Source: an uncultured Nitrososphaerota archaeon (lineage in GTDB: Archaea; Korarchaeota; Korarchaeia; Korarchaeales; Korarchaeaceae). From it: 64,000 bases of DNA. The position numbers were made by a program, and so were the translations under genes. Positions 2,848 to 13,714 of this stretch are shown piece by piece. The notes beneath the pieces are model-generated. The model saw only the letters and a list, made by a program, of their open reading frames with translations. It ran no database searches and was not told the origin of the DNA. The first letter of the stretch is position 1. Every line of letters starts with the position of its first letter. The stretch covers positions 1 to 64,000 of the forward strand of contig CAZQNA010000003.1 of the NCBI GenBank assembly GCA_964594835.1. Direction: 5' to 3'.

Positions 2848-3846
2848 TTAGCTCATTATTAATCTAACTTTTTCAGGTCTGAAGAGAACCTTTTCTTCCT
2901 CCGGTGGTTCGGAAAGGACAAGCTCGACCTCCTGTCCGTTAACGCTGGCCTTCACCCTGTGGGCGGACCTGGATCTCGACACTGCCATCACTCTGCCGAT
3001 CACGCCGTCTCCCGCGAGCTTTACCTCCTCGGGGTAGAAAGCCACCTTCACCTCCTCTCGTTCGATCCCCTCAAGCCTGATTCGGAATCTGTCGATTGCG
3101 TAGACCCCCTCCTCGACTCTTCTTAGCGAGAGGACGTTGGCCCCTAGGAACCTGGCTACGAACTCTATTCTCGGGTCGTCCACCACCTCGCCAGCGGGTC
3201 CCTCCCTCAGGATCCCGCCGGCCCTCATCACCGCCAGCCTGTCCGCTATGGCCAGGGCCTCAGCCTGGTCGTGGGTCACGTGAATGGCCGTGAACTCCCT
3301 CTCGGCGTGGAGCCTCCTGACCTCCCAGAGGAGCTCCTCCCTGAGCCTGGCGTCGAGGGCCCCGAAGGGCTCGTCCAGGAGGAGGACCCTGGGCTCGGGG
3401 GCGAGCGCCCTGGCTATGGCAACCCTCTGCTGCTGCCCACCGGAGAGCTGGTGCGGGTACCTCGACTCGAGGCCCTCGAGCCTCAGGAGCCTCAGGTACT
3501 CCCTCGCCCTGCGCCTGGCCTCGACCCCCTCCACCCCCCTGGCGACCAGCCCGAAGGCCACGTTGTCCAGGACGGTCATGTGGGGGAACAGCGCAAGGTC
3601 TTGGAACACCATGCCGACGTTCCTCTCCCTGGGGGGCACCTCCGTCACGTCGACCCCGTCGAACAGAACCCTCCCCGAGTCGGGCCTCTCCAGGCCCGCG
3701 ACCACCCTCAGCATTGTGGTCTTGCCGCACCCGCTGGGGCCCAGCACCGCCGTGACGGCCCCCTCCGGGACCCTGAGGGAGACGGAGTCCAGCGCGACGA
3801 CATCGCCGAACCTCTTGCTCACCGACCTCAGCTCGACCTCAACCAC
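2848..3846 (-). CDS. thiQ: Thiamine ABC transporter ATP-binding subunit
   Basis: Walker A GPSGCGKT, signature LSGGQQQRVA, LLLDEP, C-terminal TOBE-like region. Real start is GTG 3846 (VVEVELRSVSK) inside the longer ORF. Last gene of the operon. Confidence 0.88.
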   Translation of the reverse strand: MVEVELRSVSKRFGDVVALDSVSLRVPEGAVTAVLGPSGCGKTTMLRVVAGLERPDSGRVLFDGVDVTEVPPRERNVGMVFQDLALFPHMTVLDNVAFGLVARGVEGVEARRRAREYLRLLRLEGLESRYPHQLSGGQQQRVAIARALAPEPRVLLLDEPFGALDARLREELLWEVRRLHAEREFTAIHVTHDQAEALAIADRLAVMRAGGILREGPAGEVVDDPRIEFVARFLGANVLSLRRVEEGVYAIDRFRIRLEGIEREEVKVAFYPEEVKLAGDGVIGRVMAVSRSRSAHRVKASVNGQEVELVLSEPPEEEKVLFRPEKVRLIMS

Positions 3847-5429
3847 CTCATCCTCCCCTCCACGATCTGCTTGGCCCAGAGCGCCCCCCAGGTCAGCAGG
3901 GCGACGAGAGACGAGACCGCCGCGGCCTCCTGGAACCTCCTCACCCCGGCGTACCTCAGGGCCACCACGGTCAGGGTCTGCGTCGCCGGGGAGGCCAGCA
4001 GGGTGCTGGCCGCGGTCTCCGAGAGCGAGAGGGCGAGGGCGTAGAACGCGCCCGAGAGCACCGCCGGGGCAGCGGCCGGCAGGAGGACCCTGAAGGTGGC
4101 GTCCAGCCTGCTGAGGCCCAGGGTCTCTGCGGCGTCCAGCAGGCTCTCCGACAGCCCCGAGACGCCGGACTCCACGGCCCTCATGGCGAAGGGCGCCGCG
4201 ATCAGGACGTGGCTGGCGGCGATGAGGGCCCAGCCCGGGGCACCCAGCCTGAGGCCGAGGGCATAGAGCCCTAGGGCGGCCGTGATGGACGAGGTCCCCA
4301 GGGGGAGTGAGGAGACCTCCAGCGCCAGCGACCTGGCCCTGGGGGGCGCCGACGCCACCAAGGCGGCGAGGGAGAGGGTGACTATGGCAGTCACGGCGGC
4401 GAAGAAGGCGCTGTTGAGGAGACCCCTGGCGGGCATGGTCCCGAGGGAGGCGTCGTAGGCTGTCGAGAGGATCCTGGAGTAGACCGAGGGGTCGAACCTG
4501 TCGGTCAGCGGGTCGAAGAGCGAGCGGGCGACCAGGTATGCGACTGGGTAGACCGCGACGGCGGCGGAGGCGTACGCGTAGAGCGCGCCCAGGGGCGCCC
4601 AGGACCCCCTCAGGGGCCTCCGCCTCCTGATCTCCCCCGCTGCCCCCAGGGACGACCACCTCAGCGAAGCCCACGCAACGGCCATCGTGGCCGCCAGCTG
4701 AATCAGAGCGGCGGCGGAGGCGCGCTCGGTGTCCAGGAACACCTTGTACAGGGAGTAGATCTCGACCTCGAGCGTCCTGTACCTGGGTCCCCCCAGGAGG
4801 AGCGGTATGGCGAAGCTGGTGAAGCTCAGGGCGAACGTGAGGGAGAAGCCTGCCGCGACCCCCCTCAGGGCGAGGGGGAGCGTGATCCTGAAGAACCTCG
4901 TCAGAGGCCCGGCGCCGAGGGTCTCGGCCGCCTCCTCGAGCCTCACCCCCACGGCCCCCAGGGAGGCGGAGATCATCTGGGCGCAGACGCCGAAGTTGAA
5001 GTAGGCGTGGGCCAGGACTATGGCTGGCCAGCCCTGCGGCACGAGGCCAGCCCTCGCGAGGAGCAGGAAGGCCAGGGCCACGGAGACCGTGGGAAGAGTG
5101 AATGGGAGGGCCACGAGGCTCTCCACGAGACCCCTGCCCGGATACTCATAGGTCGAGTTGAGGTAGGCGAGGGGCAGGGCGAACAGGACGGCCGCGCCCG
5201 CGCTGGCGAGGGCCTGGAGGAGGGAGAACCTCAGGGACCTCAGGACGACGGGGTCGGTTGCGGCTTCGGCCAGGGCTCGGAGCCCCTCGACCAGCAGCGC
5301 CCCCGCCGAGGAGGTCCACAGTGAAAAGAGCAGGGCGGAGGCGAGGAGGGCCGGGAGCCAGTCTCCCGCATCCCATCCCAGCCGACCGCCCTTGGGGAAC
5401 ACGCGTATCGCCTTTCCCGCCTCTGCCAA
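3828..5429 (-). CDS. thiP: Thiamine ABC transporter permease (duplicated TM domain)
   Basis: 533 aa with two EAA loops (LEEAAETLGA, LLDAAETLGL), between the binding protein and the ATPase. Confidence 0.88.
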   Translation of the reverse strand: MAEAGKAIRVFPKGGRLGWDAGDWLPALLASALLFSLWTSSAGALLVEGLRALAEAATDPVVLRSLRFSLLQALASAGAAVLFALPLAYLNSTYEYPGRGLVESLVALPFTLPTVSVALAFLLLARAGLVPQGWPAIVLAHAYFNFGVCAQMISASLGAVGVRLEEAAETLGAGPLTRFFRITLPLALRGVAAGFSLTFALSFTSFAIPLLLGGPRYRTLEVEIYSLYKVFLDTERASAAALIQLAATMAVAWASLRWSSLGAAGEIRRRRPLRGSWAPLGALYAYASAAVAVYPVAYLVARSLFDPLTDRFDPSVYSRILSTAYDASLGTMPARGLLNSAFFAAVTAIVTLSLAALVASAPPRARSLALEVSSLPLGTSSITAALGLYALGLRLGAPGWALIAASHVLIAAPFAMRAVESGVSGLSESLLDAAETLGLSRLDATFRVLLPAAAPAVLSGAFYALALSLSETAASTLLASPATQTLTVVALRYAGVRRFQEAAAVSSLVALLTWGALWAKQIVEGRMRWLRSS

Positions 5430-5430
5430 G

Positions 5431-6540
5431 TTAGGATCCCACGGCCCTCCTCCACTCGTCGAGCCACTGCTTAAGGTTGGCCGCCACCTCTTGGGGGGAC
5501 AGGACCTCGTTCATAAGCTTGATCTTAGTGGGATCGATGGCGTACTGCACGTACTCCGGCGGGAGCTGGACGTTCTTGTTGGCGGGGTACATCCAGTTGT
5601 TCAGCGGTATGATCCTCTGCACGTCTGGGCTGAGGAAGAATTCGATGAACTCCTCGGCCAGCTCCCTGTGCGGCGCGCCCTTCACCAGGCCTATGCCCTC
5701 TATCTGGAGCCACCCCCACTGCTCGCCGTCGTGGGTCACCAGCGTCGCCCTGTACCTCGTCTCCTGGTAGAAGTGATAGGAGTAGGCCCCGTCGGTCCCG
5801 TAGCTCACCACTATAGGCCTGCCCTGGGCCTCGTCAAGGAAGACGTCATAGGCGTCTCCCCAGCTCCCCGCCACCAGGAGGCCGTTGTCAATAGCCCGGG
5901 TCCACCAGTCCCTCCAGTCCCCGCCGGTCATCTTGTAGTAGGCGATCTGCCAGAGCAGGAAGCCGAGTCCGGTGCTGCTGACGGTCGGGTCCTCCGCGAC
6001 CAGCTTGGAGGCGTACTCCGGCTTGGCCAGGTCGTCGAAGGTGAGCCCGCTCATCTCCCCCTCCGAGATGCGCTGGCCGTCGTACACCAGGGCGATGAGG
6101 CCGTAGTCGTAGGGCACCACGTGGTGCGTCGGGTCGAGGGAGCTGACCAGCCAGTCGTGCACCTCGTCTAGGTTGCCTGGTGTGTAGGGCTCGAGCACTC
6201 CTGCCTCGATGGCCTCGTGTATGAGCACGTTGTCTATCCCTATGATCACATCCGCCTGCGGGTTTCCCTTCTCCTGGATCAGGGCCAGCAGCGCGGACCT
6301 CGCGTCGTCGAACTCCCTGACCTCGACCTCACAGTTGTACCTGCGCTCGAACTCGCCGTAGACCGCGTCTAGCGTGGCGTTGGGGTCGTCTCCCCACTTG
6401 AGCAGGCTCTCGTATGTGTAGATCACCAGCCTCCTCTCGGCCTCAGTCTCGCCGGACCTCTGCAGGGCCACGTACGCGGCGGCCAGCAACACCACCGCCG
6501 CCAGCGCGAGGGCCAAGATCCGGCCGGCAGTCCACCTCAC
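5431..6540 (-). CDS. thiB: Thiamine ABC transporter substrate-binding protein (TbpA/ThiB)
   Basis: LVIYTYESLLKWG, ADVIIGIDN, PYDYG, DPTVSSTG, SYGTD, QIEG, NWMYP motifs of TbpA. N-terminal TM anchor from GTG 6540. TPP riboswitch upstream. Confidence 0.9.
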   Translation of the reverse strand: MRWTAGRILALALAAVVLLAAAYVALQRSGETEAERRLVIYTYESLLKWGDDPNATLDAVYGEFERRYNCEVEVREFDDARSALLALIQEKGNPQADVIIGIDNVLIHEAIEAGVLEPYTPGNLDEVHDWLVSSLDPTHHVVPYDYGLIALVYDGQRISEGEMSGLTFDDLAKPEYASKLVAEDPTVSSTGLGFLLWQIAYYKMTGGDWRDWWTRAIDNGLLVAGSWGDAYDVFLDEAQGRPIVVSYGTDGAYSYHFYQETRYRATLVTHDGEQWGWLQIEGIGLVKGAPHRELAEEFIEFFLSPDVQRIIPLNNWMYPANKNVQLPPEYVQYAIDPTKIKLMNEVLSPQEVAANLKQWLDEWRRAVGS

Positions 6541-6599
6541 ACCATACCCCCTCCCGGCAGACACCGGAGGGGCCGCGGGAGTCGGCATAAGGAGGTGCC

Positions 6600-6703
6600 G
6601 CGGGCACGCTCCCTACGCCGGCATTACCCGGATCAGGTTCCAGGGGTCGGCGGCGCGCTAGCCGCCCTCTCAGCCGGGTTGCCCCAGCTCCCCCGGTGCC
6701 CGC
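6600..6703 (-). ncRNA. TPP riboswitch aptamer (THI box)
   Basis: Minus strand reads GCGGGCAC-C-GGGGGAGC...GCUGAGA...GACCCCUG-GAACCUGAU-CCGG-GUAAUG-CCGG-CGUAGG-GAGC-GUGCCCGC. It has the CUGAGA and CCUGAU..UAAUG..GCGUAGG signatures and an 8-bp P1, and sits upstream of thiB. Confidence 0.95.
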
Positions 6704-6725
6704 CGGGCCCCCGCGTCGGGAGATG

Positions 6726-6738
6726 TATAAATCGTTTA
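6726..6738 (-). promoter_or_regulatory. BRE/TATA promoter of the riboswitch-thiBPQ transcript
   Basis: Minus strand TAAACGA-TTTATA about 23 nt upstream of the aptamer 5' end. Confidence 0.7.
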
Positions 6739-7068
6739 CACTTACCTGGAGGACGTCCGCTCGCTCCCTCTCATCCACCGCCCCCGTGCGGATCGACGTT
6801 AGGTCCCACCATCAGCCCTGTGGGAGGAGTTTACTTCGACAGGGACTGGGAGGGAGGGGTTCAACGCCCTTAGGAGTCCCTACAAGTCGGGTTGGCCTGT
6901 GACTTCGGATCACCATCCAGTCCGTCGGAGGTGGGGGGTCCTTCGAAGGGGGGCGGTCTATAAGGCTGGAGAGATTGACGGAGATCGGAGGGCGTGGGCC
7001 ACTCTGAGTGCCGATGGATTTAATGGGGTTAATGGGAAGGGGCAGCGGGCGGGGCAGAGTTCTGGCGC

Positions 7069-7978: not shown

Positions 7979-8995
7979 TTGGAGGCGGTGGCTCCCGTGT
8001 CCGGAAAGGCCCGTAGGGAACTCCTGGAGCTGATCACCAGGCTGTCCGGCGCCAGGCGAGGGGAGGTCGAGGTCCCCCCGAACCCGCTGCTCGACGCCGG
8101 CGTCGTGGCGGGTTCGAGGTCTAGGTACGTCTGGGCAACCGACCCAGCCCTGGGAGTTCCCAGGGAGCACCTGGGGATACTCGCCTTTCACTTCACGGCC
8201 TCGGACGTGGCCGTCCTGGGGGGGAGGCCAGAGTACGTAGCCGTTGACCTCCTGCTCCCGCCGGACTCCCCGAGAGAGGAGCCTGTGGAGATCATGAGGC
8301 AGATCCACGACGAGGCCCGGAGGTACGGGGCCTCGATCGTGACCGGGCACACCGGCTGGTACCCGGGCGTGGGGGAGCCGATCGTGGTGACAACCATCGC
8401 CGGCAGGGCGGAGAGGGTGCTGCTACCGTCCAACGCCTCTCCCGGGGATCGAATACTCCTCGCCGGCGTCATAGGCGGGGAGCTCCTGTACTCCCTCGCG
8501 CACTTCAGGCCCGACCTCATCGCCGACTCCTACGGCGAGGAAGGTGTCAGGAGGTGGGGGGGCTACTTCAGGGACCTGTCCGTGGTTGACGCGGCCCTGC
8601 TGCTGTCTAGGAGGGGGCTCGCCCTCGCCATGAAGGACGGGGCCGAGGGCGGTCTCGTCAGGGCGCTCCTCGACCTGGCCGACTCGGCCGGGCTCGGGTT
8701 TCACGTCGAGGAGGACAGGCTCCCCATCCCACCTGAACTCCTGGCGCTGGCCGACGAGTTCGGGTTCGACCCGCTGGCGGCCTCCAGCTCGGGCCTGCTG
8801 GTGGCCGCCGTCAGCCCCGAGTGGGCCAGGGAGGCGGTCTGGCACATGGGCCTGCTCGGCATCCCAGCGGAGGTCGTGGGGACCTTCCACGAATCCCCGG
8901 GGGACAGGTGGATACTGGGCCCATCGGGCAGGAGGAGGTTCCCCAGAGAGGCCGAGGATCCCTACGCCTCAATGCTCGGGGGCCGCCAGCCTTAG
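7979..8995 (+). CDS. AIR-synthase-related (PurM/HypE/ThiL-like) protein
   Basis: DAGVV, ATDP, SDVAVLGGRP, IVTGHT, MKDGAEGGL, DPLAASSSGLL motifs. Confidence 0.8.
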   Translation: MEAVAPVSGKARRELLELITRLSGARRGEVEVPPNPLLDAGVVAGSRSRYVWATDPALGVPREHLGILAFHFTASDVAVLGGRPEYVAVDLLLPPDSPREEPVEIMRQIHDEARRYGASIVTGHTGWYPGVGEPIVVTTIAGRAERVLLPSNASPGDRILLAGVIGGELLYSLAHFRPDLIADSYGEEGVRRWGGYFRDLSVVDAALLLSRRGLALAMKDGAEGGLVRALLDLADSAGLGFHVEEDRLPIPPELLALADEFGFDPLAASSSGLLVAAVSPEWAREAVWHMGLLGIPAEVVGTFHESPGDRWILGPSGRRRFPREAEDPYASMLGGRQP

Positions 8996-11672: not shown

Positions 11673-13631
11673 CTACTGAACCCGCCTCGCATCCAGCTCT
11701 CTCCAGACGATCCTGTACAGGCGACTGAGGAGGGACGAGGCGGTCTCCTCGTCCACGCCCAGCATACCCAGGACCGCTAGGTCCAGCTGCCAACGCCCCT
11801 CCCGATCGAGCTGGTCCGGGAGGGCCGGTAGACTCCCTGAGCCGAGCCTCCCCAGAGACTCTGCGGCCCTCTCAACCCTCTCCCGGGAGAGGGAGGGGAT
11901 GTTGGGCGTAGGGATACTCCTGTAGTCGTCCAGCAAGAACCTCAGCCAGCTGGGGCCTATCTCCCGGCCCGCCACCAGGAGGTACGCCAGAAAGGGCGTG
12001 GAGTTGTACCAGGCCGCCAGGGCGGCCTCCCAGACCGGGTCGCCGCAGTCGATCAGGTAGAAGTTCTTGGTGGCCGAGACCTGCTCCGGGCAGAAGAGGG
12101 CCAGGCTCCCCCTCCGGTTGGGGTCGAGCTTGTCCAGCAGGAAGAGCCTCGCAAAGGGCCTCTTGGTCCTCACCTGCCTTGACACGTGGGCCCACCATGC
12201 AGGCCCGAAGGCCCTGATGGCTGGCCCTGCCGCCCCCGACTCCTCTCCCCACCTCACGTACCTCCTGACGTCCTCCGTGGACTCTGACAGGTCCTCCGGC
12301 AGCGCCAGGAGGAGGTGGGACGGGAAGGCCACAGCCGTCCACCTGTGCGACTCCGGCTTCCTGAAGGCCGGGATCAGGAGTTCTCTGGGGATCAGGATCT
12401 CTCCACAGGCCTCTCCGACGATCAGGGCCCCCTCCTCCCCCAGGCCCCTGAGGGACCAGTGCCTGTTGGGGATGAGGAAGAAGTCCGGCCCGTACATCTC
12501 GACCCCCCTCAGGGCCCTGCACGGCGGCCCCCTCCTCAGCGCCCCGCTCGAGAGCCCCTCGAGCAGCAGCGGCAGGAGCAGGTCCTTGATCGGGTGCCTC
12601 CTGACGGCCGCCAGGAAGCTCGGGAACGCCCTTGCCTCCTCCCCTATCCTCTCTACTGGGAGCGTTCTCCTCCCGACGAGCCTCTCGGCCCGCTCCAGGG
12701 CCTCCTCGGTCAGGCGGATGTGCTCGATCCCCCTGAGCCCCAGCCCCCTGGAGGCCAGGAGGACGACCTCCTTGAACCCGCTGTCCACGCTGGCGGAGTG
12801 CCAGGGCCCCTCGACCAGGGCGACGTGGTCGAACCTGTCCCTCAGCATCCTGACTATACCCCTACCGTAGAGGGTGTAGAAGGTGGAGGCGGGCAGGACG
12901 CTCGCCAGGACGCCCGCGTCCCTCAGCAGCCTCTCGGCGAGCCCGAGGGCGAAGGCCTGCAGGGAGGGCTGTCCCTTCAGGTCGTCCGGAACGCCGAGGT
13001 CCCTCAACGAGCTGAGGAGGAAGGTCCTGTACTCGCGCCCCAGAAGCTCCCACCTGGTGAAGGGCGGGTTCGTGAGGATCGCGTCCACCTCGGAGGACTC
13101 CGAGGACAGCGTTACGAAGCTGTCCCCGACCCTCACGTCCAGGGGGTCCTCGTCCCCCCTGAGGGCCGTTAGCGCAGTCGCGTAGCACGCCAAGGCCGCC
13201 TCCGGAACTATCTCAGAGGCTAGGATCTCCCTGGGCGTCACGCCCGACATCACGGCCTCCCAGATGGTCACGCCGGCGCCGGCGAACGGGTCAGAGATGT
13301 CCGGAGAGGGCCCGAGGATCCTCCTGGCCGCCCGGGCCATCATCCTGGCGACTGGCCTAACGGTGTAGTATGCGGCCAGCCTCTTCCTCGCGTCCCCGAG
13401 CTTGGGGGCCAGCGAGTCCTGGAGCTCCCTGGCCAGCCTCATGGCCCCGTGCCTCGAGAGGCCCCTTGCCCTCCTGACGGCCTCCTGGATCAATTCGGGG
13501 TCAAGGTCCTCCACGCTCATGCCAGAGAGGCCCTCGGGCTGGTCGAAGCCCTCGGCCGAGGTCACCCCCCTCCAGAAGGCGATCAGGGCCAGGGACTCGA
13601 CGGCCTCCCTCCTGAGGCCGGGCCTGATCAT
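11673..13631 (-). CDS. N6-adenine DNA methyltransferase (gamma class, N-6 DNA methylase/Eco57I-like) with TRD
   Basis: YYT motif X, DPFAGAG (motif I), NPPFTRW (motif IV), long C-terminal TRD. Start ATG 13631. Confidence 0.85.
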   Translation of the reverse strand: MIRPGLRREAVESLALIAFWRGVTSAEGFDQPEGLSGMSVEDLDPELIQEAVRRARGLSRHGAMRLARELQDSLAPKLGDARKRLAAYYTVRPVARMMARAARRILGPSPDISDPFAGAGVTIWEAVMSGVTPREILASEIVPEAALACYATALTALRGDEDPLDVRVGDSFVTLSSESSEVDAILTNPPFTRWELLGREYRTFLLSSLRDLGVPDDLKGQPSLQAFALGLAERLLRDAGVLASVLPASTFYTLYGRGIVRMLRDRFDHVALVEGPWHSASVDSGFKEVVLLASRGLGLRGIEHIRLTEEALERAERLVGRRTLPVERIGEEARAFPSFLAAVRRHPIKDLLLPLLLEGLSSGALRRGPPCRALRGVEMYGPDFFLIPNRHWSLRGLGEEGALIVGEACGEILIPRELLIPAFRKPESHRWTAVAFPSHLLLALPEDLSESTEDVRRYVRWGEESGAAGPAIRAFGPAWWAHVSRQVRTKRPFARLFLLDKLDPNRRGSLALFCPEQVSATKNFYLIDCGDPVWEAALAAWYNSTPFLAYLLVAGREIGPSWLRFLLDDYRSIPTPNIPSLSRERVERAAESLGRLGSGSLPALPDQLDREGRWQLDLAVLGMLGVDEETASSLLSRLYRIVWRELDARRVQ

Positions 13632-13714
13632 CACCGACCCTCTGGGCGCCCGGGCAAAATAAGGGTGTGGGGGGCAGGGCCGACCCGGCACCAAGATCTC
13701 CCGGGGTCATCAGG

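Follow-up and report, generated by a model that had tools for sequence, protein, structure and literature searches.

Does the leader of the thiB-like gene in this korarchaeal DNA hold a functional TPP riboswitch, and if so, how might closure of an aptamer at the 5′ end of the transcript reach a ribosome-binding site located well over 100 nt downstream? The stretch analysed (64,000 nt, here called the window) comes from a 1.82 Mb archaeal genome with a G+C content of 64.9%; a 16S fragment, which reaches 653 bits with the archaeal SSU model, bears out the archaeal host that had been assumed. A search with the Rfam covariance models finds RF00059 at 6604–6699 on the minus strand, with 62.8 bits against a gathering cut-off of 54.3 (E = 5.9e-10). 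RF00059 is the sole Rfam family over its cut-off in the 64-kb window, and the same locus is the single RF00059 match genome-wide. The sequence-only reading of this DNA had placed a canonical THI aptamer at 6703–6600 and named this search as its check; the match agrees, and the full 8 bp P1 helix gives exactly those ends. The elements of the aptamer are as follows.

6600–6704, minus strand: TPP aptamer, from the RF00059 match and the fold
6703–6696 with 6607–6600, minus strand: P1, 8 bp
6694–6691 with 6646–6643, minus strand: P2
6688–6673, minus strand: P3
6666–6649, minus strand: P3a
6637–6612, minus strand: P4/P5

Aligned to the consensus of the model, the RNA has two sensor arms, P2/P3 with CUGAGA and P4/P5 with GCG, closed by P1. 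The isolated aptamer is predicted to adopt the canonical fold at 37, 75 and 85°C. For comparison, 33 unique leaders were analysed, drawn from 56 full-length korarchaeal-type leaders; those cut by contig ends or failing the motif filter (for example L007 and L028) were excluded. In the alignment used (A1), L092 and three rows of the L012 type are out of register, and these are counted as unpaired in all the pairing figures given below for the aptamer, the X:Y helix, the anti-aptamer helix and the SD hairpin. The aptamer helices are 98–100% paired over 31 distinct sequences, with three covarying pairs in P1 and one in P3a. The core is nearly invariant in the same 31 sequences, and the conserved blocks are CUGAGA, ACCUGAUC and GCGUAGGGA.

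RF00059 occurs in 27 of 61 sampled relatives, in 27 of the 40 genomes of the class and, leaving aside the genome of the window, in 24 of 35 from its family. The genes that follow the korarchaeal copies encode thiB-like proteins, NCS1 permeases and ThiC, all of them thiamine-related. The upstream genes here (DUF6036 and an AIRS protein) have no synteny with the riboswitch at other loci. Judged by its score and its recurrence in the class, the aptamer exceeds what chance would be expected to give. On this comparative evidence the element is a real, canonical TPP riboswitch and no new class. It shares with RF00059 the P1–P5 architecture, the conserved blocks and the placement before genes of thiamine transport or biosynthesis; the aptamer itself does not differ, and what is particular here is the thermophilic korarchaeal host and the G+C-rich P1. 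It would be expected to bind TPP selectively.

Three genes follow on the same strand.

5431–6540, minus strand: thiB-like substrate-binding protein (TIGR01254), 369 aa, starting at GTG 6540
3828–5429, minus strand: two-domain ABC permease (BPD_transp_1 twice), 533 aa, resembling ThiP in its length and coverage
2848–3885, minus strand: ABC ATPase (ABC_tran); the listed 608-aa open reading frame is over-extended and the start is approximate

The first protein scores 202 bits on TIGR01254, the thiamine ABC substrate-binding subfamily (cut-off 93), and falls under the cut-off of the thiB equivalog model. GTG 6540 opens a conserved N-terminus (MRW...) that aligns with those of relatives. ThiP models cover 40–515 of 519 positions of the permease with scores under their cut-offs; the ATPase reaches 170 bits with the thiQ model, which is also under the cut-off and is exceeded by many other ABC ATPase models. 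The proposed thiBPQ operon behind the element stands, described here as thiBPQ-like.

The ribosome-binding site lies within a hairpin.

6548–6572, minus strand: SD-sequestering hairpin, from sequence and folding prediction
6572–6564, minus strand: anti-SD arm, CCCCUCCGG
6563–6558, minus strand: hairpin loop, UGUCUG
6557–6548, minus strand: SD arm, CCGG(G)AGGGG
6550–6554, minus strand: Shine–Dalgarno core GGAGG, 9 nt before GTG 6540

The hairpin comprises nine base pairs and one bulged G. Earlier it had been drawn from 6572 to 6547, burying the SD just upstream of the thiB GTG. It is indeed present with GGAGG in its 3′ arm, and its start holds; its end is 6548, as 6547 takes in one G too many. 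All of the elements listed in that reading lie on the minus strand and within 1 nt of where it had put them. At 37, 75 and 85°C its predicted free energy is −18.2, −7.4 and −4.5 kcal/mol, respectively, and in the nearest-neighbour model the hairpin is stable up to 85–95°C, the energy parameters at 75–85°C being extrapolations. Considered alone it is not unusually stable for its G+C-rich composition (z = −1.24; 22 of 200 shuffled sequences fold equally well or better). Each of the 33 unique related leaders has an equivalent hairpin; with the register fixed, 81.9% of its cells on alignment A1 are paired, and just one pair covaries. Support for the hairpin comes from this recurrence and from the conserved alternative pairing described below, and not from its own stability.

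The claim that no U-tract terminator follows also stands. The longest run of U in this leader is 2, runs above 2 are likewise absent from 32 of the 33 leaders, and there is no terminator-like site within 6350–6850. Use of SD sequences by this host is plausible. In a crude profile based on open reading frames, GGAGG is enriched ∼2.5-fold in this genome at spacings of 7–10 nt before the starts (counts of 34, 32, 43 and 31, against ∼14 elsewhere). Two genomes from the same family have a 16S 3′ end that reads GAUCACCUCC, containing CCUCC, the end in the present genome being unassembled.

Masking of the SD by a downstream hairpin would provide the OFF half of a switch, and here the earlier proposal of an OFF switch acting by SD sequestration is supported by the hairpin and the lack of a terminator. 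The ON half was absent from it. Closure of the aptamer is linked to the anti-SD arm by a mutually exclusive alternative pairing, in which an X:Y helix is predicted to form together with an anti-aptamer hairpin (6620–6603 with 6599–6583).

6690–6704, minus strand: switching sequence X, GGCGGGCACCGGGGG, supplying the 5′ strand of both P1 and P2, complementary to Y
6556–6570, minus strand: Y, CCUCCGGUGUCUGCC, running from the third nt of the anti-SD arm through the entire loop to the second nt of the SD arm
6609–6620, minus strand: 5′ arm of the anti-aptamer hairpin, CGGCGUAGGGAG, the 3′ strands of P5 and P4 with the junction
6607–6603, minus strand: inner arm of the anti-aptamer hairpin, GUGCC
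6583–6599, minus strand: conserved linker GGCAC-CUCCUUAUGCCG, the 3′ arm of the anti-aptamer hairpin

X is the first 15 nt of the leader, and forms 15 contiguous pairs with 6570–6556. The complementarity is present in 33/33 unique leaders, and in every one the best duplex between leader nucleotides 1–17 and the platform involves the anti-SD arm together with the loop (at 75°C, −9.3 to −17.2 kcal/mol). Pairing occupies 91.4% of the X:Y cells in alignment A1, compared with 49–54% when the partner is slid by 1–3 columns. Five of the 15 pairs (29 cells) have compensatory changes on both sides, and the covariation score is reached by none of 500 shuffles, although such controls overstate the support since the 33 leaders are related. 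When partners are swapped among 17 haplotypes the pairing falls only from 8.6 to 7.0 of 10.

In every unconstrained minimum free energy (MFE) fold the linker is paired with 3′ aptamer sequence (6594–6583 with 6620–6609). The 12 pairs of this anti-aptamer helix are formed in 91.6% of cells, with no both-sided changes on alignment A1 because the aptamer side is invariant. For 32 of 33 leaders at 75°C, the free ensemble exposes the ribosome site more than does the ensemble with the aptamer forced (median difference 0.25). At the same temperature the aptamer-closed state is predicted to lie 5.5–15.3 kcal/mol above the free ensemble (median 10.5), a cost which we take to be at the limit of what binding of TPP could pay. 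A purely thermodynamic switch is doubtful in these calculations, since the cost of closure is so near to the energy available from the ligand, and the choice between the folds may be kinetic rather than thermodynamic.

Other roles considered for the linker were discarded. The ATG at 6588–6586 would make an N-terminal extension that is not conserved; g7 leaders have no AUG there, and in g3 leaders the frame terminates at the main start. Pairing of the linker with the start-codon region in the OFF state appears in the constrained fold of the window and is inconsistent in other subtypes.

The ON fold would place the 5′ terminus of the mRNA in the X:Y helix, so that the position of the transcription start matters.

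6724–6737, minus strand: archaeal promoter-like element, read from the sequence
6737–6732, minus strand: BRE-like A-rich AAACGA
6731–6724, minus strand: TATA-like TTTATACA, that is TTTATA(CA)

The TATA box said to precede the aptamer is recovered as this TATA-like sequence, and of 30 distinct sequences upstream of related leaders, 28 have their most A/T-rich 8-mer starting 23–32 nt ahead of the leader's first base. A transcription start at any position between ∼6704 and 6700 would be compatible with the TATA-like box. With the RNA 5′ end at 6704, 6707 or 6710 the MFE structure at 80°C contains X:Y and no SD hairpin in 12/12 combinations of ends. If the RNA begins at 6702 or 6700, X:Y is found in just 1 of 32 predicted MFE structures, and the SD remains paired (predicted unpaired probability 0.16–0.46). 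The folding model thus predicts that exposure of the SD without ligand requires an RNA start at or before 6704.

We consider it probable that the locus is a translational TPP OFF switch with two mutually exclusive folds, located at the 5′ end of a thiBPQ-like mRNA in a thermophilic korarchaeon that is seemingly unable to make thiamine. A preprint (10.1101/2023.09.28.559970) predicts a growth optimum of 70–85°C for the phylum. With TPP bound the aptamer would be closed, including all 8 bp of P1. The C/U-rich arm 6572–6564, left free, would then pair with 6557–6548, burying GGAGG 9 nt before GTG 6540 in the hairpin. When TPP is absent the conserved linker 6599–6583 would invade the 3′ part of the aptamer (6620–6603), and the freed 5′ end of the RNA (6704–6690) would pair with the anti-SD arm and loop (6570–6556), leaving the SD and start codon single-stranded. 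The two-state model is well supported by the comparative and folding evidence; the mechanism built on it is what we would infer from the same data, with translation rather than mRNA decay as its probable output.

That TPP might act instead on the transcript, by premature termination or endonucleolytic decay with masking of the SD secondary, we regard as clearly unlikely. In general, mRNAs that are masked and left untranslated have lower stability, so that decay might be a consequence of masking. Any termination would have to be factor-dependent because there is no U-tract; U-runs do not exceed 2 in 32/33 leaders, no terminator-like site is present, and the conserved elements are exactly those required for masking and unmasking the SD. 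It is distinctly improbable that the hairpin is constitutive, or an RNA thermometer uncoupled from the aptamer, with X:Y a by-product of G-rich and C-rich composition. Such a view could draw on the unexceptional stability of the hairpin against shuffles, on a predicted fold that depends on temperature under some choices of boundary, and on the part of X:Y in which GGGGG faces CCUCC, which simply follows from an SD-like P2. The non-trivial half of the helix, however, in which the 5′ strand of P1 pairs with the loop, covaries with changes on both sides at columns 1, 3, 8 and 10, the loop copies the 3′ strand of P1 (GUGCCCGC) in some genera, and in the slid controls the share of paired cells drops to 49–54%. 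Highly improbable is an aptamer that is a relic, or a sensor of another thiamine-related ligand, with no regulation by TPP. Variant TPP-like motifs with altered specificity exist, and binding of TPP to this aptamer is a prediction from its sequence; but the score of the full RF00059 architecture exceeds the cut-off, both sensor helices being present along with the CUGAGA and GCGUAGGGA blocks, the core hardly varies, and the regulon consists of thiB-like, NCS1 and thiC genes.

A further reading retains the two folds and makes the switch dependent on temperature and on the 5′ end. The mRNA 5′ terminus would be the anti-sequestrator, and the ON fold would beat the SD hairpin only near 70–85°C, phylum-wide and shared with a second, unplaced lineage from soil and peat metagenomes. 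If true, the uptake genes would be locked below 70–85°C whatever the level of TPP. We find this reading rather unlikely. A requirement of the ON fold for high temperature was set aside, its outcome depending on the choice of RNA ends. The leader pattern of the second lineage is missing from 401 sampled archaeal genomes. Matches of the linker pattern in Actinotignum (7 of 26 loci) are attributed to chance; the one tested (L049) has no TPP aptamer.

The translational switch that we favour has known counterparts. In bacterial translational TPP riboswitches of the E. coli thiM type, ligand-stabilized P1 frees an anti-SD sequence and the SD is masked, with no terminator. The OFF logic of the korarchaeal element is the same as in the thiM case, and bacteria are already known to have the aptamer as well as the logic of masking the SD. 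In contrast to the thiM type, the competitor for the anti-SD is here the 5′ strand of P1/P2, at the mRNA 5′ end ∼135 nt upstream, and it would pair with the loop of the hairpin as well as with the anti-SD arm; a second hairpin, formed by the linker, would inactivate the 3′ half of the aptamer, and promoter and ribosome are archaeal. ThiR was reportedly described by Rodionov and colleagues in 2017 as a ThiN-domain transcription factor of archaeal thiamine genes. It likewise exerts feedback control of archaeal thiamine uptake and synthesis genes, acting as a DNA-binding protein where the korarchaeal element is RNA.

That riboswitches are rare in archaea, as the sequence-only reading held, agrees with McCown et al. 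2017 (PMC5473149), where one riboswitch is counted in Korarchaeota; the TPP class would thus already be on record for the phylum. Its view that SD sequestration is barely characterized in archaea is likewise in keeping with two papers (PMC8241225, PMC11549558). According to these, the Thermococcus fluoride riboswitch is the only native archaeal riboswitch tested; the way in which archaeal TPP riboswitches control expression has so far been predicted. That riboswitch, from T. kodakarensis (Speed et al. 2018, as cited in PMC8241225 and PMC11549558), is also native to a hyperthermophilic archaeon and thought to be translational. It differs in aptamer class and ligand, and in having been tested experimentally. 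Among the papers listed in our literature search, none gives a prior description of a korarchaeal TPP expression platform, and the word ‘riboswitch’ is absent from the Korarchaeota preprint cited above.

Together with its relatives, the locus is a candidate of compact size (∼165 nt) for testing natural translational riboswitch control in archaea. The advantages are an explicit two-state model backed by covariation, defined mutations that would be expected to lock the switch ON or OFF, and a thermostable design fit for probing in vitro and for reporters in tractable thermophilic archaea. For the host itself, no match to ThiC, ThiN or NCS1 was found in this genome, which is 97% complete. The organism appears unable to make thiamine, import of thiamine looks essential, and with no ThiN-domain match the host may have no thiamine regulator other than the riboswitch. 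This suggests that in korarchaea without ThiC and ThiN the uptake of thiamine may be under the control of RNA alone.

The elements of the locus follow one another on the minus strand as TATA-like box, leader, aptamer, conserved linker, hairpin and the GTG start codon at 6540:

6731-6724, minus strand: TATA-like TTTATACA, read in the sequence
from ~6704, minus strand: start of the G+C-rich leader, read in the sequence
6703-6600, minus strand: TPP aptamer, counting in the full 8-bp P1 (6703-6696 / 6607-6600)
6572-6548, minus strand: SD-sequestering hairpin, with CCCCUCCGG (6572-6564), UGUCUG (6563-6558) and CCGG(G)AGGGG (6557-6548)
6554-6550, minus strand: GGAGG, within the hairpin's 3′ arm and 9 nt upstream of GTG 6540

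The aptamer itself is unremarkable within its family. The covariance model RF00059 (Rfam) matches 6699-6604 with 62.8 bits against a gathering score of 54.3 (E 5.9e-10), and together with the ends of the 8-bp P1 this bears out the extent of 6703-6600 proposed in the sequence-only reading. It is the sole Rfam family exceeding its cut-off within the 64-kb window, and the RF00059 search finds a single TPP aptamer across the whole genome. The TATA box of that reading is present as a TATA-like element and, as it stated, no U-tract terminator follows; the leader contains no U-run longer than two, and a scan of 6350-6850 gives no terminator-like sites. The hairpin that it described as burying the SD upstream of the GTG stands, with GGAGG in the 3′ arm, though its end is read as 6548 and not 6547. 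The aptamer score, the GGAGG within the hairpin and the lack of a terminator thus confirm the original observation. Taken alone the hairpin is unexceptional against same-composition shuffles (z = -1.24, with 22 of 200 equally or more stable), so its significance depends on comparative evidence.

Leaders were collected from genome loci and one metagenome scan (at least 120 matches). At least 56 are full-length and korarchaeal-type, and 33 unique ones were analysed. All 33 have a hairpin directly upstream of the start codon, in which a G-rich SD-like sequence is paired with a C/U-rich segment. On an alignment of the leaders (A1) it is 81.9% paired in a fixed register, a bulge shifting some rows, with one covarying pair. 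Two further conserved complementarities, of the linker with the aptamer and of the leader 5′ end with the platform, complete the switch, supplying the half absent from the sequence-only description.

The linker after P1, CUCCUUAUGCCG (6594-6583) extended by GGCAC (6599-6595), is complementary to the aptamer's 3′ portion, namely CGGCGUAGGGAG (6620-6609) with GUGCC (6607-6603). The resulting anti-aptamer hairpin is present in all unconstrained folds, and its 12 pairs are 91.6% paired on A1; with the aptamer strand invariant, the changes are one-sided. When the aptamer is forced to fold in the window's leader, the linker GGCACCUCCUUAUGCC (6583-6599) is freed and pairs with the start-codon region (6526-6546, minus strand), enclosing the SD hairpin; this second lock is inconsistent in other leader subtypes.

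The linker also contains an AUG (6588-6586, minus strand) in frame with thiB, the source of the 385-aa call of the ORF finder. It was rejected as the thiB start, since the conserved N-terminus MRW... points to GTG 6540. A linker AUG occurs in 25 of the 33 unique leaders, in frame and with no stop in 15, while the other 10 frames end 0-19 nt beyond the main start. It is probably incidental to the pairing with GCGUAGGGA, or may be the start of a small upstream ORF.

X (GGCGGGCACCGGGGG, 6704-6690), the initial 15 nt of the leader, supplies the 5′ strand of both P1 and P2. It is complementary to Y (CCUCCGGUGUCUGCC, 6570-6556), which covers the greater part of the anti-SD arm and runs through the loop to the second base of the SD arm. 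For all 33 leaders the best duplex of the first 17 nt with the platform is at the X:Y site (-9.3 to -17.2 kcal/mol at 75 °C). The 15 pairs of X:Y are 91.4% paired on A1, against 49-54% with the partner slid by 1-3 columns, and five of them show two-sided changes (e.g. column 3 C-G to A-U and column 8 A-U to G-C). The covariation score is matched by none of 500 shuffles, a statistic that overstates the support because the leaders are related; when partners are swapped among 17 haplotypes, pairing is still 7.0 of 10, against 8.6 unswapped. The hairpin loop is a copy of the P1 3′ strand GUGCCCGC in one genus.

A second set of TPP leaders is found on metagenome contigs (L070, L074, L079, L080, L084, L095, L119, L149, L167, L177 and L178). 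The P1 5′ strand GAAGGUACCGGGGG is complementary to UCCUCGGUGACCUUC, immediately upstream of the SD GGAGGUGA, and would follow the same 5′-strand anti-sequestrator logic. These leaders have a common upstream GTTAAGTCTAAAT motif and a membrane-protein ORF downstream; the pattern was not found among 401 sampled archaeal genomes.

In 28 of 30 distinct upstream sequences an A/T-rich 8-mer, often AAAACTTTTTAAG, starts 23-32 nt ahead of the first base of the leader, and from this spacing the 5′ end of the mRNA is probably at P1 or a few bases from it. In a crude ORF-based profile, taken at the first start of every ORF with 200 codons or more, GGAGG is over-represented 7-10 nt before the start (34, 32, 43 and 31, versus ~14), a range that includes the 9 nt at GTG 6540. 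The 16S 3′ end is GGAUCACCUCCC in two genomes of the same family; that of the window's genome is unassembled.

The isolated aptamer is predicted to fold canonically from 37 to 85 °C. The predicted energy of the SD hairpin is -18.2 kcal/mol at 37 °C, -7.4 at 75 °C and -4.5 at 85 °C. In the MFE structures of the leader (6704-6526) this hairpin is retained at 37 and 60 °C, whereas those for 75 and 85 °C comprise X:Y and the anti-aptamer hairpin, with the 30 nt 6555-6526 (SD core and start codon) unpaired. The predicted ON fold depends on the RNA ends chosen. For RNAs beginning at 6704, 6707 or 6710, the MFE structure at 80 °C has X:Y and no SD hairpin in all 12 end combinations, and from 6707 this is so at all four temperatures; for RNAs beginning at 6702 or 6700, X:Y forms in one of 32 folds and the SD remains paired. 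For 32 of the 33 leaders at 75 °C, the free ensemble leaves the ribosome site more accessible than the aptamer-forced one does (median difference 0.25). Aptamer closure carries a calculated penalty of 5.5-15.3 kcal/mol (median 10.5) across the 33. A penalty this large points to kinetic control during transcription, or else to sizeable tertiary and ligand energy outside the model.

A translational OFF switch is the best-supported reading. On binding TPP the 5′ end would be held in P1 and P2, and the SD masked by the anti-SD arm. Without TPP the 3′ half of the aptamer would be disabled by the linker, and the anti-SD arm and loop captured by the leader 5′ end, exposing the SD and GTG; the output would be translation and not decay. 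The E. coli thiM riboswitch is an SD-masking TPP riboswitch, and bacterial elements of this type have the same logic. Unlike them, the korarchaeal platform would use the very start of the mRNA as the competing strand, and it has a separate anti-aptamer hairpin.

RF00059 is present in 27 of 61 sampled relatives. Counts for the class and for phylum members with completeness of at least 80% are 27 of 40 and 23 of 32 genomes. Among the sampled relatives it is found in the window's genus (4/4), in two other genera (g3, 17/21; g5, 3/4) and in a second family of the class (2/2), and in none of five g2 genomes or of 23 genomes from 21 other families (f2, f4-f23). The genes behind it in the relatives encode thiB-like substrate-binding proteins, NCS1 (Transp_cyt_pur) permeases and thiC. 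The aptamer-linker pattern occurs at 26 loci in species genomes, 19 in archaeal MAGs (including Candidatus Korarchaeum sp. and Thermoproteota archaeon isolate Kor2) and seven in Actinotignum; the latter were rejected as chance matches, the single one checked having no TPP aptamer. One korarchaeal genome has two same-strand TPP aptamers 1.5 kb apart (G019:C2:749598-749709 and 751244-751357; 55.2 and 76.1 bits). In a relative (G017; L005:1393-1458, minus strand) a riboswitch-led thiC has an in-frame TAG after codon 21, beyond which a thiC-like frame resumes; a pseudogene, misassembly and recoding are all possible explanations.

The assembly (1.82 Mb, 24 contigs, 97% complete, 64.9% G+C) contains a 16S fragment scoring 653 bits with the archaeal SSU model, and the genome belongs to a high-G+C korarchaeal genus. 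The thiBPQ operon of the sequence-only reading is upheld as thiBPQ-like. A substrate-binding protein, a permease and an ABC ATPase are encoded downstream of the leader, the first passing the TIGR01254 thiamine-binding subfamily (202 bits, cut-off 93) but failing the thiB equivalog; the second, a two-domain permease of 533 aa, has ThiP-like coverage but scores under the cut-off of the ThiP model. ThiC, ThiN and NCS1 have no match in this 97%-complete genome and, with its only TPP aptamer leading the importer, the organism probably relies on this riboswitch-led thiamine uptake. It is probably without a ThiR-type regulator.

Nearby, a 608-aa ORF call (2848-4674, minus strand) is over-extended and overlaps the permease gene, its ABC ATPase domain running from ~3885. 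An AIRS/AIRS_C protein (7979-8995, plus strand) scores 77 bits with HypE and 64 bits with ThiL, both below cut-off; its gene and the riboswitch are on opposite strands, the gene lying 1.3 kb upstream, and the two are not adjacent in other loci. A 673-aa ORF (11673-13694, minus strand) without a Pfam match contains ...ILTNPPF..., a motif known from N6-adenine DNA methyltransferases.

The class is not new to the phylum, since one riboswitch in Korarchaeota is already counted by McCown et al. 2017 (PMC5473149). In a Korarchaeota preprint (10.1101/2023.09.28.559970), growth optima of 70-85 °C are predicted across the phylum and high-G+C vent genera are mentioned; the word 'riboswitch' is absent. 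The literature searched, Gupta and Swati 2019 and Rodionov et al. 2017 apart, contained no description of the platform. According to two papers (PMC8241225, PMC11549558), the Thermococcus fluoride riboswitch is the sole native archaeal example to have been tested. The korarchaeal element is moderately interesting, since it could serve as a tractable system for studying how native archaeal riboswitches may act on translation.
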